From NCBI GenBank assembly GCA_023266055.1, contig JAHFRW010000010.1:4139-68138 (forward strand): DNA of 64,000 bases. Reading direction: 5' to 3'. The DNA comes from Gammaproteobacteria bacterium (lineage in GTDB: Bacteria > Pseudomonadota > Gammaproteobacteria > Ga0077554 > Ga007554). The stretch's first letter is position 1. Each line of letters opens with the position of its first letter. The notes under the pieces were generated by a model. The model was not told the DNA's origin and did no database searches. It saw only the letters and a list, made by a program, of their open reading frames with translations. Shown piece after piece: positions 1-59,195 of the stretch. Both the position numbers and the translations under genes were made by a program.

Positions 1-19
1 ACATGCTGGTGTTGCGGCA

Positions 20-406
20 TTAGTTTGCGCCCTGTACTGCTTGCTTGAAGTCTTCCCATACAGAGGGCTCCCAGTCGCGATCCACGAATTCGGTTTGAAG
101 CGGTTTTTTGCTCACGATGGTGATGGTGTATTGAGAAGCCGATTCATCCGTGGGTTGAATAAAGAATCCCACCACTTTTCCTGCCGTCCCATTGACGACT
201 TGGGATTTGATAACACCAGAAGGTTTGTGACTTTCAACGATTTTCATATCAGTGCTCATAGCCACGGTTGCCGCACGCCATATCTGTTCGTAGCTCTTGC
301 CGCTAACGGAAAAGCTTTTGCCTTTACCGTTGCTAAGCTGCAGGCTATCTGTGCTTACGCAGGCGGACAAATACAGGCTTAACAGCAAAGTTAAGATGAT
401 CTTCAT
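20..406 (-). CDS. Lipoprotein of unknown function, second gene of a two-gene integron cassette
   Basis: Likely start MKIILTLLLSLYLSAC (lipobox LSAC) behind a GGGGAG RBS; the ORF-track start at 460 overlaps the upstream gene. Confidence 0.75.
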   Translation of the reverse strand: MKIILTLLLSLYLSACVSTDSLQLSNGKGKSFSVSGKSYEQIWRAATVAMSTDMKIVESHKPSGVIKSQVVNGTAGKVVGFFIQPTDESASQYTITIVSKKPLQTEFVDRDWEPSVWEDFKQAVQGAN

Positions 407-420
407 ATTGTCTCCCCTTG

Positions 421-891
421 TCATTTGCGCATATCTGGCTTTGGTTGTGCGCCAGAACACCTGAATATGATGACCTTGCTCTGGTTGCAGCTAGGTGTCA
501 GCTGAACATTGCCCACATAGCGAGCCTTGACGTTGCCAAGCCCTTCATGTCGAATCGAATATTGATCTTTACCACCACATGCTTCATCTATGGCAGCAAG
601 AGCCTGATTCCTTCTTGCCTGAACAAGGGAAGATAGTCCTGCATCACAGTAGTTAACGTCACCAGTTGGCTTGGTGATCTTCTTCTTGTTGGCGAAAAGC
701 TCCTTCACCTCGGATGGTGTAAGCATAGTTGGAATAGTACCCTCGGCGGTCATATTTGCCTGTTCCTCCGGAGTATATATATAGGCTTTGGCGGCGTTGC
801 TGCTGAACATTCCGCCGCCCGCATTTGGATCAATTGCACAGCCGACAAGTGCGATTGCTGTGGAAATAATTATTGTGATTTGTTTCTTCAT
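421..891 (-). CDS. Cys-containing lipoprotein of unknown function, first gene of the cassette
   Basis: Lipobox LVGC, AGAGGA RBS, starts 29 nt after the core of attC 920-974. Confidence 0.8.
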   Translation of the reverse strand: MKKQITIIISTAIALVGCAIDPNAGGGMFSSNAAKAYIYTPEEQANMTAEGTIPTMLTPSEVKELFANKKKITKPTGDVNYCDAGLSSLVQARRNQALAAIDEACGGKDQYSIRHEGLGNVKARYVGNVQLTPSCNQSKVIIFRCSGAQPKPDMRK

Positions 892-919
892 GCTGCTTCC
901 TCTTTGGTGAAAAAATAAA

Positions 920-974
920 ACCTAACGTAGAGCTAAGCGGCGGCGCAGCCGTCCGCTTGAGCGCCGGGTTAGAA
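920..974 (-). other. attC site
   Basis: ACCTAAC...GTTAGAA cores with internal palindrome (CTAAGCGG...CCGCTTGAG); near-identical to attC 2073-2127. Confidence 0.9.
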
Positions 975-1328
975 CGCGGGGGTGCAGTGGATGATGAATA
1001 TGAAAAGGACCCTGCACCTGACGCCTCCGCTGTTTTTCAAACCCTTGAGGGGACTACTGTACTCGAACCTTTTACCGGTGAACAGAGCCCGTGAATGGGC
1101 TTTACCTGATGCGGTTGAAAAAACGCCTGCTCTGGGCGACACGGCCTGAAAGGATCTTCATGGCCCCACTAAAGACCACGCCCCCGCGAAACCCTTTGCG
1201 GCAGAACAGAACGGGCGCCGCGGGTGAAGAACTCTGCACGAGAAGCTGCCCGTACCCCTGGAGGGTGGGGAGCGTGATGACACCAGAATCTGGCCCACAC
1301 ACTCAACCGAATCAAAGCCTGATGAGCG
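975..1328. ncRNA. ORF-less structured integron cassette, type A copy 1 (candidate ncRNA or structured ssDNA)
   Basis: Lies between two attC sites, no credible ORF, multiple hairpins, second copy at 2128-2481. Confidence 0.55.
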
Positions 1329-1391
1329 CTCTAACGTAAAGTTGAGCGGCGCGCCGCTTCTGGCGCGTCCCGCTCGAACGCCATGTTGGGC
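1329..1391 (-). other. attC site
   Basis: CTCTAAC...GTTGGGC; inner GTTGAGCGG-CGCGCC / GGCGCG-TCCCGCTCGAAC palindrome with an extrahelical base. Confidence 0.9.
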
Positions 1392-1402
1392 ACTTATGTT
1401 AA

Positions 1403-1669
1403 TTACTCAGACCACAGCACATCATATTTAGGAACCATTTTTTCAAGCACGCGTTGGCGCAACGCATCGCATTCTGCGGTGTATTCTGCGAGCCAAAGAA
1501 GAGTGGTGCCGCCAGTGTTAAACCCGGCGACCTCCCAATTTCTCTCCGGGAGGTTTATTTTTCTGAGGCTCCCGACGGCACAGTGGCAATCTTTGTGTGC
1601 CCAATCCTTTTCCAATGCCTCGTTGATAACTTTAAGTAGTTGCTGCTCCGAAAGTAGATCTTTTGCCAT
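1403..1669 (-). CDS. 88-aa cassette protein of unknown function
   Basis: MAKDLLSEQQ... with GGGAG RBS fills the cassette; the cassette core sites GTTGGGC/GCCCAAC are exactly complementary. Confidence 0.8.
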   Translation of the reverse strand: MAKDLLSEQQLLKVINEALEKDWAHKDCHCAVGSLRKINLPERNWEVAGFNTGGTTLLWLAEYTAECDALRQRVLEKMVPKYDVLWSE

Positions 1670-1715
1670 ACGGTACTCCCTTTGTTTGTGTTCTGATTTG
1701 CGTACGTCCCCTGGG

Positions 1716-1812
1716 GCCCAACGTAACGAAGTTGAGCGACGCTTGCAGCACAGAGTGCCGGGGAAATATAAAACGCTTCCCTGCAAGTGTTCGCTCGAAC
1801 GCAGGGTTGGAC
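1716..1812 (-). other. attC site (97 bp)
   Basis: GCCCAAC...GTTGGAC; GTTGAGCGA-C-GCTTGCAG / CTGCAAGT-GT-TCGCTCGAAC stem. Confidence 0.88.
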
Positions 1813-2072
1813 GTGAAAGGGGGTGCGCCAAGGGGATGTCCTCGTGAACGAATTTTTTCGGCCCGGAGTCTACCCCGCCCCGCTGACCCCTCGGTGAGTT
1901 ATCCGGGGCGAAGCGTCGGTACCGCTCGTTCGCATTAACGAACGTTATGCGACGGCGCGTACGACGCTTCGCTCTTTTAACATATTTTGACCCCTTTGTC
2001 CAGTGTGGCGTGTTTACTTGGCTCATATCATCCGCTGATACGGGTCAACGAAGGCGCCGCACCCCCTATCGC
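1813..2072. ncRNA. ORF-less structured integron cassette, type B
   Basis: No self-contained credible ORF; 22-nt terminal inverted repeat, a 65-nt long hairpin and further stems. Confidence 0.55.
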
Positions 2073-2127
2073 GACCAACGCAAAGCTAAGCGGCGGCGTA
2101 GCCGTCCGCTTGAGCGCCGGGTTAGAA
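2073..2127 (-). other. attC site
   Basis: GACCAAC...GTTAGAA; same family as attC 920-974. Confidence 0.9.
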
Positions 2128-2481
2128 CGCGGGGGGGCAGTGGATGATGAACATGAAAAGAACCCTGCACCTGACGCCTCCGCTGTTTTTCAAACCCTTG
2201 AGGGGACTACTGTACTCGAACTGTTTACCATTGAACAGAACCCGTGAACGGGCTTTACCTGATGCGGTTGAAAAAACGCCTGCTCTGGGCGACACGGCCC
2301 GAAAGGATCTTCATGGCCCCACTAAGGACCACGCCCTCGCGAAACCCTTTGCGGCATCACAGAACGGGCACCGCGGGTGAAGAACACTGCACGAGAAACT
2401 GCCCGCACCCCTGGAGGGTGGGAAGCGCGATGCCGCCAGAATCTTGCCTACACACTCAACCGAGTCAAAACCTGATGAGCG
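2128..2481. ncRNA. ORF-less structured integron cassette, type A copy 2 (first position, next to attI)
   Basis: About 26 substitutions and no indels versus 975-1328 by manual alignment. Confidence 0.55.
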
Positions 2482-2545
2482 CTCTAACTAGAAGTAGACC
2501 CCAATAAAATACCTAAAATTATATCAGACAGGTGTCTAAAGCTGG
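2482..2545 (-). other. attI site (boundary approximate)
   Basis: Last core site CTCTAAC is followed by non-palindromic AT-rich DNA immediately upstream of the divergent intI. Confidence 0.65.
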
Positions 2546-2633
2546 ATTTAACTATATTTTTTATTTAAAATCAATGGTAATCTTGTTTTATGAGCGATAA
2601 CCCTCATTTTTTAATACACCTTCGGTTTTATTT

Positions 2634-2816
2634 ATGCCACACACTCAAAATCCACCTAAACTATTAGAGCAAGTCCAGGCGAAACTCCGGGTAAAACATT
2701 ACAGTATCCGCACCGAGCGTACTTACCTCGACTGGGCGAGGCGCTATATTTTGTTTCATCACCAAAAGCACCCAGCGAAGATGGGGGCGCAGAACAACTT
2801 AAGGGTCAAGTTTTGA
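2634..2816 (+). pseudogene. intI: Truncated integron integrase (N-terminal SAM-like domain only)
   Basis: KLLEQVQAKLRVKHYSIRTERTYLDWARRYILFHHQKHPAKMG is the typical IntI N-terminus; divergent from the cassettes; catalytic domain absent. Confidence 0.92.
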
Positions 2817-2919
2817 CATCATTCATTATGGAAATACGCATAAATCCAAGTGTATTATTCAACGGTGTGTTTGATGATAAAAGGTGGACGGTGATGAATA
2901 ATGTCAAGACTGACCCTAA
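2800..2919. repeat. Small element with ~27-bp imperfect inverted repeats (REP/REPIN-like) at the intI breakpoint
   Basis: TAAGGGTCAAGTTTTGACATCATTCAT (2800-2826) versus ATGAATAATGTCAAGACTGACCCTAA (2894-2919). Confidence 0.7.
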
Positions 2920-2926
2920 TGTTTTT

Positions 2927-2973
2927 TCGGCACCTTGCGCACCCTCGCTACGAGGCTAATGTAAAATCTGGGA
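2927..2973 (-). mobile_element. Solo end of the MITE found complete at 58268-58444
   Basis: Reverse complement of about 58268-58314 with about 3 mismatches, followed by TAA. Confidence 0.85.
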
Positions 2974-2989
2974 TAATGCGGGAGATATC

Positions 2990-3739
2990 ATGATCTTCAA
3001 ACAATTATTCGAACCCAATTCATCAAGCTACACTTACCTGCTGGGTTGTCGTGACAGCGGGCAAGCGGTGCTCATTGACCCGGTACTGGAAACGGTAGAG
3101 CGGGATCAGCGTGTTATACAGGAACTCGGGCTGAAGCTCGCCTATTGCATAGAAACCCATATTCACGCCGACCATCTCACCGGCGCGCGCAAATTAAAAT
3201 ATTTGCTAGGCAGCAAAATCGCGGGGCCAGCACTTGATGGTATCGCCTGCCGTGATGTTGGTCTGCGTGAAGGCGAACTGTTTCGTGTTGGCAGCATTGA
3301 AATTCACCCGCTGTTCACGCCCGGCCACACTGACACGCATCACGCTTATTGGCTCGACAATGGCACGCATACGCTGCTGTTCACGGGTGATGCGTTATTG
3401 ATTGATAGCTGCGGCCGCACTGACTTTCAAAGCGGTAATGCCGCCACGCTCTACGAATCCATCCAGAAAAAATTCTTTACCCTGCCCGACGAAACCTTGG
3501 TGTATCCCGCGCATGATTATAGCCAGCGGCAAATATCCACTATCGGTCAGGAAAAAATCCGCAACCCGCGCATTGGCGGAAAAACCGCGCAGGAATTTGT
3601 CAGCATTATGCACAACCTGAATTTACCTTACCCGAAAAAAATGGAATTCGCTGTGCCCGGAAATATGAGTTGCGGCGAATGTCCGCCAAATGTGCCGGAG
3701 GAATTTAAAGGGCCGTGCGAGGTTAGCAAGCAGGGGTAA
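2990..3739 (+). CDS. Persulfide dioxygenase (ETHE1/Sdo-type MBL-fold protein)
   Basis: FKQLFEPNSSSYTYLL, ETHIHADH, TPGHT, GDALLI..CGRTDFQ, YPAHDY. Confidence 0.88.
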   Translation: MIFKQLFEPNSSSYTYLLGCRDSGQAVLIDPVLETVERDQRVIQELGLKLAYCIETHIHADHLTGARKLKYLLGSKIAGPALDGIACRDVGLREGELFRVGSIEIHPLFTPGHTDTHHAYWLDNGTHTLLFTGDALLIDSCGRTDFQSGNAATLYESIQKKFFTLPDETLVYPAHDYSQRQISTIGQEKIRNPRIGGKTAQEFVSIMHNLNLPYPKKMEFAVPGNMSCGECPPNVPEEFKGPCEVSKQG

Positions 3740-57025: not shown

Positions 57026-57180
57026 AGCACGCGTAGCTCGGTAGCGCTGGGTTGACAAATCCAGAAAATAATGGGGTCACAGGAATAATGGGTAGGGTAG
57101 AGAGCAGCCGCTCGGCTACCCTCCCTCATCAAACCGTGCATGCGCTACTAACGCACACGGCTTTCCGATGTTGTTCACAC

Positions 57181-58713
57181 CTAAGCATGCGCCGATCTCC
57201 AGCCTGCTGTTGTTGGAACTTTGTATAAGCCGTAACGCTGATACAGCTGTTGACTTGGAAAGCGCCCCAGACCGATCCCTCGGTCTTTTACTTTATGCCG
57301 CTTCATTAGGTGAGTTCGCAGGCGTTCTTCTGCATACGTCCTGACCTTGCTTAAAGCACTGCTAGAGTTTTTATAATGGAAGTAGTTTGTCCAGCCACGC
57401 AGGCTTGCATTCATGCTGCCAACTATATCATCCAACGGGATCGGGGTACGATCTCTGGTCGTCAATTGTTTCATGCGCTCTTTGATTTTTGCAAGTGATT
57501 TGGTCGACGGACAAACATGAGCGTATCGCTTGCCTGACTTCCTTCCCTTACTCACTCTGATTTCAAATCCTAAGAAATTAAAGCTGCCCTGCCGTGCATC
57601 GACGATATGGGTTTTGGTCTCATTTAACTTGAGATCAAGCTTATCCATTATGTAGCGCATCCGTGCCAATGGCACATCTACTTTGCCTTTGCATAGCACG
57701 ACGAAATCATCCGTATAACGAACAATTCGTGCTCCCAGTTTCTTATCTGGTTCATGCCTGTCCCAAATCCTGTCCAAAATATGTAGGTAGCAGTTGGCCA
57801 GCAACGGTTAAATGACACCCCCTTGCGGGGTGCCTATGCTGTTGGCTTTGCCACCACCCACGTTTCTCTTGGTGCCGTCCTTGTCCTGCTCTATTACCGG
57901 GGCTTTGAGCCAGAGTTTGATGATGTGGAGGATCGCTCCATCAACAATTCGCTCGGCAACAACGGCCAGTAATTTTGCGTGGGGAATACTGTCGAAGTAT
58001 TTCGACAGGTCGGCATCAATGACTTGGGTGTAACCTTGGTATAACGCGTCGGCTATTTTATCGAGCGCTTGATGGGCTGATTTCTTTGGCCGGAATCCAT
58101 ACGAATTCGGGCTGAAATCGGCTTCAAAAATCGGTTCAATGATGAGCTTGGTCACCATCTGGGCTACGCGGTCACGGATCGTCGGAATGCCTGGTGGACA
58201 CAGGCTGCCATCCGCTTTGGGTATCATGACGCGCCGCACCGGGCTTGGACTGTAGCTTTGATTTTTAACCCAGATTTTCCATTAGCCTCGTAGCGAGGGT
58301 GCGCAAGGTGCTGAAGATGGGCGAGAAAAGTTGAAAAACAGGCGAAGGCGTAGTCACTCTACGGTGACAGACTGTTTTTCAACTTTTCTCGCGCAAATTC
58401 AGTGCTTTGTGCGACCGCAGTAGAGTCTAATGGAAAATCTGGGTTTAAGGTCAGTGACTAGTTCCAACAAAAACGTGTCTATCCCTTCTCCGTTTTCTAT
58501 GTCGTCAAAGTCGATCCCGTTAATGCCGGGACTGCCTTTGTTGGCGCGAACAAGGCGGTAGGCAAACATGAGGATGTCTGCCCGCCATACCTTGTCGTAG
58601 AGCGCGTAAAAGCGATAAGCCGGTTCTTGCTTGGCTTTGATATAGAGCTTCCTCTGTAGTGTCCTGATATTCTCAGAGGTAACTAGCACCATGGCAATCC
58701 CCTTTTCCTTCAC
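57181..58713 (-). pseudogene. ltrA: Group II intron reverse transcriptase/maturase pseudogene (no En domain)
   Basis: RFYALYDKV, IPTIRDR, SYGFRP, DLSKYFDSI, GTPQGGVI*PLLAN (nonsense codon), YTDD; split by the MITE. Confidence 0.92.
58268..58444. mobile_element. 177-bp MITE
   Basis: Perfect 18-bp TIR ACCCAGATTTTCCATTAG, TTA target duplication, internal perfect 21-bp stem; removal restores ...DLKNQSY... Confidence 0.92.
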
Positions 58714-59195
58714 TCTTTGGTTGCATCAACAAAGCAGGGCTGGCCCCTCGCTTCGCTCTCCCCTCAATCGTGGTTGTGTTGTCCGTCGATCTCAAGCAGT
58801 ACTATGAGCCCCTCCGACTCCCGTTACAGTCTGCTGCGTTTTCGTTTCCTTATACGCAGCAGTCGATGGTCTCCCCACCACCGCAACGGGCCGGAAGCCA
58901 AGGGCAATAAATCTTCGAGAACATGCCGACCTTGCTACCCCGGGAGTCGATGCGCGCCACTTCCGTTATTTCAGCGCACATCCAACGGCCTTCCCCTTCT
59001 GACCACAGGGTCGGCTTCTCCAATTTAGTTTACGAGGCTACGTGTAGGTTCACTTGCGTTACGGCCTGCTCTCTTGCTGTGTGAAAACTCACGACCTCGT
59101 GTTACCACAACGCCGCTTTCTCATGCTACCAAGGCGTACGGACAATTCCTTGGACGGGACTTTAACTCGCTAGATTTACTGCTGTTACTGCGAAC

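Follow-up and report, generated by a model that had tools for sequence, protein, structure and literature searches.

A Gene-Free Integron Cassette with Self-Pairing Ends in a Gammaproteobacterial Genome

Results

Cassette B and the Integron Array

The window, a 64,000-nucleotide stretch of a draft metagenome-assembled genome of a gammaproteobacterium, begins inside an integron cassette array: positions 1–2490 of the window and the preceding 4.1 kb of the same contig (C84) form an array that reads on the minus strand, the strand that also carries the ORFs of the array cassettes. A first-pass annotation had singled out positions 1806–2079 as an ORF-less cassette resembling a retron msr-msd layout. 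We identify this element as the non-coding body of a mobile integron cassette, hereafter cassette B, and not as a retron. The features of the locus are as follows:

1716–1812, minus strand: attC of cassette B (folded as DNA, z −3.2, boxes paired and an inner stem formed)
1722–2078, minus strand: the mobile unit of cassette B, consisting of its body and own attC (crossover points between G and TT at 2079/2078 and 1722/1721)
1806–2079, no strand assigned: the 274-nt element, i.e., the cassette B body with its flanking boxes (R'' box of its own attC at 1806–1812, R' half-site at 2073–2079)
1806–1827, no strand assigned: left arm of the terminal inverted repeat (7-nt core box plus 15-nt extension)
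1876–1910, no strand assigned: short stem rich in G+C, whose coordinates overlap those of the long hairpin's base
1908–1972, no strand assigned: 65-nt imperfect palindrome (long hairpin)
2058–2079, no strand assigned: right arm of the terminal inverted repeat, partner of 1806–1827
2073–2127, minus strand: attC of the neighboring cassette A1, whose R' box is the right end of 1806–2079
2487–2580, minus strand: attI region with a Pc-like promoter (2580 to 2551) aimed into the array
2634–2816, plus strand: truncated integron integrase gene (intI), ~60 codons

The inverse-core and core boxes of attC sites follow the consensus RYYYAAC and GTTRRRY; core boxes are present here and the cassette's own attC is able to fold as a hairpin, as befits an attC-bounded cassette. 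Two arm motifs of the cassette B attC recur in the attC at 1330–1392 (repeat families D2 and D6). Cassette B is G+C-rich (58% versus 51% for the genome). On the plus strand, an A+T-rich core, TAACATATTT, lies between G+C-rich stems and is kept in the three full copies of the cassette, and a T-rich run is found 3' of the long hairpin.

The place of cassette B in an integron array is borne out by the attI region and the integrase gene remnant beside it, which together span 2487–2816. The Pc-like promoter was found by a sigma-70 scan, and a sequence nearly identical to this attI precedes a full-length, intact intI on contig C57 of the same genome (485 bits against a cut-off of 265). The remnant in the window retains only the N-terminal SAM-like domain, matching positions 1–45 of TIGR02249 and Pfam PF13495. 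In the genome as a whole there are four attI-like regions (window 2487–2816; C57:875–1991; contig C12, at 1617–1710 of locus L002; C73:28177–28257) and just one full intI, that on C57; the copy in the window ends after ~60 codons and C12 has no intI. Some of these attI/intI joins could be assembly artefacts of the draft assembly.

On the side of cassette B facing attI, the attC at 2073–2127 aligns over 53–55 nt, at 83.6% identity, with the attC that immediately follows aadA5 in a class 1 integron carried by an E. coli plasmid. The two sites are in matching orientation, which places the cassette bodies to the right of 2073–2127 on the minus strand. A plasmid search with the region matched this attC only, in eight records.

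Several other gene-poor units occupy the array. One further type of ORF-less cassette, A, occurs at least three times, in copies that are 93–94% identical (975–1330, 2127–2487 and positions 1–117 of C84); its folding as a DNA circle is moderate (z −1.1 to −3.2), it has no match in Rfam, and in sequencing run X2 it lies within a 2045-nt contig where both flanks differ. Upstream of the window, C84:227–927 and C84:1808–2294 are larger G+C-rich cassettes without obvious ORFs that have internal repeats in common, one 15-nt string being present at both 445 and 1808, and an Rfam search of this upstream array (locus L007) gave nothing above chance. Elsewhere in the genome, C83:21405–21469 matches half of the cassette B attC in its C12 version at 91% identity before running into unrelated sequence, and is possibly another cassette relic.

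Folding of the Cassette Body

The comparison with shuffled sequences that the first-pass annotation had proposed came out strongly on the side of structure. Folded as RNA, 1806–2079 reached −128.6 kcal/mol on the plus strand (z −7.47) and −124.9 kcal/mol on the minus strand (z −5.47), with 0 of 200 dinucleotide shuffles as good on either; an independent set of 150 shuffles gave z-scores of −6.3 (plus) and −6.0 (minus). That both strands fold about equally well is expected of Watson–Crick palindromes.

The ends of the element are indeed 22 nt long and 86% (19/22) complementary, as had been reported, forming one of only four inverted pairs reported in window positions 1–3000. They were said to extend the 7-bp core-site pairing by 15 bp, and 13 of the 15 positions past the 7-nt boxes do pair, against 3–7 of 15 in ten other cassette bodies of the array; none of 200,000 random 15-mer pairs drawn from the array reached 13 matches. 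The 65-nt hairpin also stood up: as DNA it folds at −25.5 kcal/mol on either strand (z −4.8 and −4.9; 0 of 200 shuffles), and 1904–1976 as RNA gave −45.2 kcal/mol (z −7.1) on the plus and −40.4 kcal/mol (z −5.6) on the minus strand. This hairpin has no second copy in the genome. The two smaller stems of the annotation fared less well. The CGCCCCG/CGGGGCG stem at 1876–1910, described as competing with the hairpin base, is present and shares coordinates with that base, but its folding is modest (−9.7 kcal/mol, z −2.9, 2 of 200 shuffles as good). The letters of the TTGACCC/GGGTCAA stem around TATCA/TGATA (1986–2048) are likewise there, but the fold is at chance level (z −0.9, 37 of 200 shuffles as good).

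Folding of cassette B as circular single-stranded DNA gave z −5.2 (plus) and −4.4 (minus), compared with −1.1 to −3.2 for three neighboring cassettes. By computation, the terminal repeat joins the two ends of the cassette, its R' half-site pairing with the R'' box of its own attC; in the excised circle this duplex constitutes the attC R box, and the repeat lengthens it by 15 bp. The predicted circle has one long arm, in which the R-box duplex and its 15-bp extension are stacked with the attC inner stem. When 1705–2140 was folded as DNA in its linear context on the plus strand, which because of the cassette orientation is the bottom strand, the cassette B stem formed with a probability of 0.98, against 0.004 for the usual pairing of the boxes within the cassette's own attC and about 0 for that within the neighbor's attC, a competition that assumes all 430 nt to be single-stranded simultaneously.

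Coding Potential

The description of the element as ORF-less is upheld by its relatives: no ORF is common to the three full-length copies, and mismatches are spread flatly over the codon phases (8, 7 and 9 variable columns, p 0.88), with no codon periodicity in the substitutions. For the longest frame, that of the copy in the related genome G001, a search of 5.8 billion proteins (33–107 residues) brought up no relative. Two candidate frames were set aside. A frame at the 3' end of the plus strand (HPLIRV...) seemed conserved and was dropped on the even distribution of substitutions over codon positions. A 207-aa ORF on the minus strand (1403–2026) starts inside cassette B, crosses the attC into the gene of the following cassette and is not conserved in C12; it is most likely an accident of G+C-rich sequence.

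Relatives and Conservation of the Fold

A BLAST search over 61 genomes, the present one and 60 relatives, gave matches in 2 of the 60 relatives, both of them other species of the same genus. A 39-column pattern fitting all four known copies hit two loci in genome contigs, the same two as BLAST, and one locus in metagenome contigs, identical to the G001 locus; a pattern for the 5' part had no match in viral contigs. The relatives of cassette B are three only, all decayed and all within a single genus: a second copy on contig C12 of the same genome and those in genomes G001 and G003. The G001 fossil (about 1488–1741 of locus L009, minus strand) lies outside any integron with its attC truncated, flanked by genes that we take, from their translations, to be erpA-like and membrane O-acyltransferase-like; the orthologous erpA locus of the present genome (C57, about 23.3 kb) has no such insert. 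In G003, only the last ~65–100 nt are homologous to cassette B, and they are joined to sequence from upstream of a DEAD-box helicase gene (rhlE-like). The 5' "half" of the G003 sequence was rejected as a homologue, being the helicase-gene upstream region itself, orthologous to C77 of the present genome.

Homologues that do not keep the helices, which the first-pass annotation had said would refute its reading, are largely what was found. None of the homologues folds better than shuffles (plus/minus z of −1.2/−0.9 for C12, −0.1/−2.0 for G001 and +0.8/−0.9 for G003). The C12 copy keeps 52 of the 99 pairs of the window fold (31 in deleted columns, 16 broken) and the G001 copy 49 of 99 (28 in deleted columns, 22 broken). 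The parts of the fold differ in this respect. Fifteen of the 20 pairs of the terminal helix are kept in C12 and in G001 each, and the outer 10 bp of the terminal stem still form in C12 with a probability of 0.69–0.77. The long hairpin keeps 0 of 26 pairs in C12, where it is wholly deleted with the attC intact, and is weakly kept in G001 (15 of 26). In the outer stem of this hairpin, 8 of 8 pairs are kept between the window and G001, with one double change and two changes to G–U, both of which pair on the plus strand only; all four changes are transitions, and retention by chance was estimated at 1 in 8 to 1 in 16. A formal count found 77% of cells paired, against 35–42% for slid partners, and 9 pairs changed on both sides, against 4.8 ± 1.6 in shuffles, on three full copies. 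This count is weak because the structure was derived from one alignment row and the G003 row of the alignment (A4) is partly misaligned and spurious.

Cassette B in Other Contexts

Judging from its neighbors in other sequences, cassette B appears to move as a body with its own attC. The diverged copy on C12 has the same attC on the same side and other neighbors on both sides, namely an attI-like sequence without intI on one and a different ORF cassette on the other. A contig of run X2 carries 1806–2080 with 0 differences and then runs through 177 nt into a different attC, and contigs of runs X3 and X4, from another study, match 1801–1957 with 0 differences; other contigs carry 21–23 differences over the same 1801–1957. 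Three contigs of run X1 diverge just before 1720, the far crossover point, and the contigs of the runs continue differently beyond 2080 and before 1720. Run X1 also yielded a 274-nt contig that is exactly 1806–2079, at a depth of 47.2 versus 10.5 for the contig of the neighboring cassette; these are word depths rather than copy numbers, and they hint at several contexts. Two candidate joints that would place cassette B beside attI (2076 to 2486 and 2079 to 2536) were set aside, their sides being under 30 nt at 80% likeness.

It is also the strongly paired variant that recurs unchanged, in several contexts and across two studies. Every weakly folding copy is a fossil: the G001 copy has a truncated attC, the G003 copy a truncated body, and the C12 copy stands beside an attI without intI.

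Retron, Group II Intron and MITE Readings

In the retron reading, cassette B would be an msr-msd-like template giving multicopy single-stranded DNA through a reverse transcriptase acting in trans. The resemblance is one of outline, a terminal inverted repeat with a long internal hairpin, and the first-pass annotation had itself remarked that the window holds no intact reverse transcriptase, which is correct. The sole reverse transcriptase belongs to the following feature:

57092–59163, minus strand: decayed group II intron (Rfam group-II-D1D4-6, 87.8 bits; Intron_gpII, 43.7 bits)

Its reverse transcriptase/maturase (57181–58713) is broken into three ORFs and lies between the Rfam intron-domain matches at 58928–59163 and 57092–57165. 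In the whole genome, which is 94.6% complete, it is the one RVT_1 match, 55 kb from cassette B, associated with a group II maturase domain (GIIM) and interrupted by stops. Cassette B has nothing in common with the intron at 57–59 kb, and an origin as a group II intron remnant was rejected.

The checks suggested for the retron reading went against it. Rfam, including msr, gave no match inside 1806–2079 at E ≤ 10 when window positions 1–3000 were scanned, Rfam's coverage of retron RNAs being limited, and none of the homologues adjoins a reverse transcriptase gene. The repeat that had been likened to a1/a2 is made of integron recombination boxes, and no branching-G context was identified. Unlike a retron ncRNA, cassette B has no retron reverse transcriptase in its genome, no Rfam match and no adjoining reverse transcriptase or effector gene, and it sits in an integron array. 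As far as sequence can show, the retron reading is refuted and the likeness coincidental; we regard it as extremely improbable.

Cassette B also resembles MITEs and REPIN-type repeats in its small size, terminal inverted repeats, strong folding and occurrence in several contexts. It differs from them in that its ends are at integrase crossover points, it travels with an attC, and its hairpin is single-copy in the genome. A MITE was rejected on the lack of a target-site duplication (flanks ...GCAGG and GCAAA...) and on the ends being the crossover points between G and TT.

Discussion

A Proposed Action of the Palindromes on Single-Stranded DNA

The explanation that we tentatively put first, while giving it somewhat less than an even chance, is that cassette B is a gene-free mobile cassette and a selfish passenger whose DNA-level palindromes act in the single-stranded phase of integron recombination. 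The exceptional folding would then come from palindromes working on either strand, and the structure may act while the DNA is single-stranded. attC sites are described as recombining as folded bottom strands (in the portion of PMC8876359 drawn on here). In the excised circle, the 15-bp extension would make the attC stem longer and more stable, with the remainder of the body collapsing into hairpins; in the array, the cassette B stem would prevail over the regular pairing of the boxes in both flanking attC sites. The structure would serve the mobility or persistence of the cassette itself and not a host product. Cassette B is probably selfish.

Like an attC site, cassette B is an imperfect palindrome built on 7-nt core boxes that folds as single-stranded DNA, and, once the cassette is excised, the base duplex of its stem makes up the R box. 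It differs from an attC in that the box order is reversed (GTT... first and ...AAC last), that it is 274 nt long and that it is the stretch between two attC sites. A bolder form of the explanation, in which a "structural" selfish cassette has evolved to exploit the single-stranded phase and tunes its own excision, re-insertion or retention, seems to us unlikely. In such a cassette, the ends would extend the R-box duplex, turning the excised circle into a rod with nearly all of its bases paired, and the stem would, in the array, take the R boxes from both flanking attC sites.

Several observations count against the palindrome explanation. The strong structure is found in this one variant only; the long hairpin was deleted in C12 despite an intact attC; palindromes can grow by template switching without selection; and with three full copies, the covariation test is without power. 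To our knowledge, sequence outside the R boxes is not known to influence how integrons recombine. In a reading without function, cassette B is a decaying or junk cassette that rides along with an efficient attC and whose palindromes arose by mutation, through template switching at the attC hairpin or near-palindrome correction. The structure is not retained in the relatives, C12 lost the hairpin without losing its attC, there is no coding, promoter or RNA-family signal, and hairpin-forming attC sites would be plausible hot spots for such events. Against it, the 13 of 15 matches stand exactly in register with the recombination boxes, unlike those of the ten other bodies, and this variant turns up without differences in distinct contexts and in two studies, which suggests its recent successful spread. 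We consider this reading doubtful, though it deserves to be taken seriously.

A structured non-coding RNA would be another source of the very low fold z-scores. Cassette B might produce a plus-strand (antisense) sRNA, or a cis-acting structure in the Pc-driven minus-strand transcript that, for example, alters the stability or translation of downstream cassettes. There is a slight preference for the plus strand in folding energy and in readable pairs (99 versus 91), the two G–U changes in the fully kept outer hairpin stem of G001 pair on that strand only, and the T-rich run follows the hairpin there; a precedent exists in the integron cassette said in the cited part of PMC8876359 to encode sRNA-Xcc1 of Xanthomonas. 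Like cassette B, the sRNA-Xcc1 cassette is non-coding and possibly yields an RNA, but cassette B has no sequence or Rfam match, and no promoter or terminator was found. The Rfam scan gave nothing inside cassette B at E ≤ 10, no promoter-like or terminator-like site lies inside it, and a terminator midway would leave the terminal stem without its 3' arm. The homologues fold at shuffle level with about half of the pairs kept, and the hairpin changes are all transitions, for which retention of pairing could be fortuitous. Of the phrase "ncRNA or ssDNA cassette" in the first-pass annotation, the single-stranded DNA half is among the surviving readings, and the homologues speak largely against a conserved RNA fold; an RNA function strikes us as rather unlikely.

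Cassette B may alternatively be a promoter-bearing or regulatory gene-less cassette that drives or insulates its neighbors. The conserved A+T-rich core would fit such a role, as would the position of the G001 fossil directly upstream of the membrane O-acyltransferase-like gene in sense orientation. Among 29 gene-less Vibrionaceae cassettes, most had sense-strand promoter activity, and their promoters are reported to be unpredictable in silico (both in the part of PMC11014356 consulted). The sigma-70 scan, however, found nothing inside cassette B, its only hit in 900–2700 being the Pc-like site in attI; the cassette is richer in G+C than the genome, and a promoter role leaves the terminal repeat and the long hairpin unexplained. 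We judge it improbable.

Significance

ORF-less cassettes are already a known kind, and cassette B is a rare further member with an unusual self-pairing feature. As in the gene-less cassettes of Vibrionaceae superintegrons (PMC11014356) and of Treponema in an oral metagenome (PMC6557892, as covered in the review PMC8876359), it has its own attC and no gene; it is also like them in its array position beside attI/intI and in its occurrence in more than one context. It differs in being G+C-rich, in lacking a sigma-70-like site in its extreme self-complementarity and in end pairing that lengthens the R-box duplex by 15 bp; neither of the last two features is mentioned in the parts of PMC11014356 and PMC8876359 drawn on here. 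Gene-less cassettes are common in chromosomal integrons and have so far been explained mostly as promoters. For a rare, genus-restricted element, the significance of cassette B is modest unless its pairing proves to steer recombination, and it would lend itself to a simple test of whether the mobility of a cassette can be steered from outside its attC.
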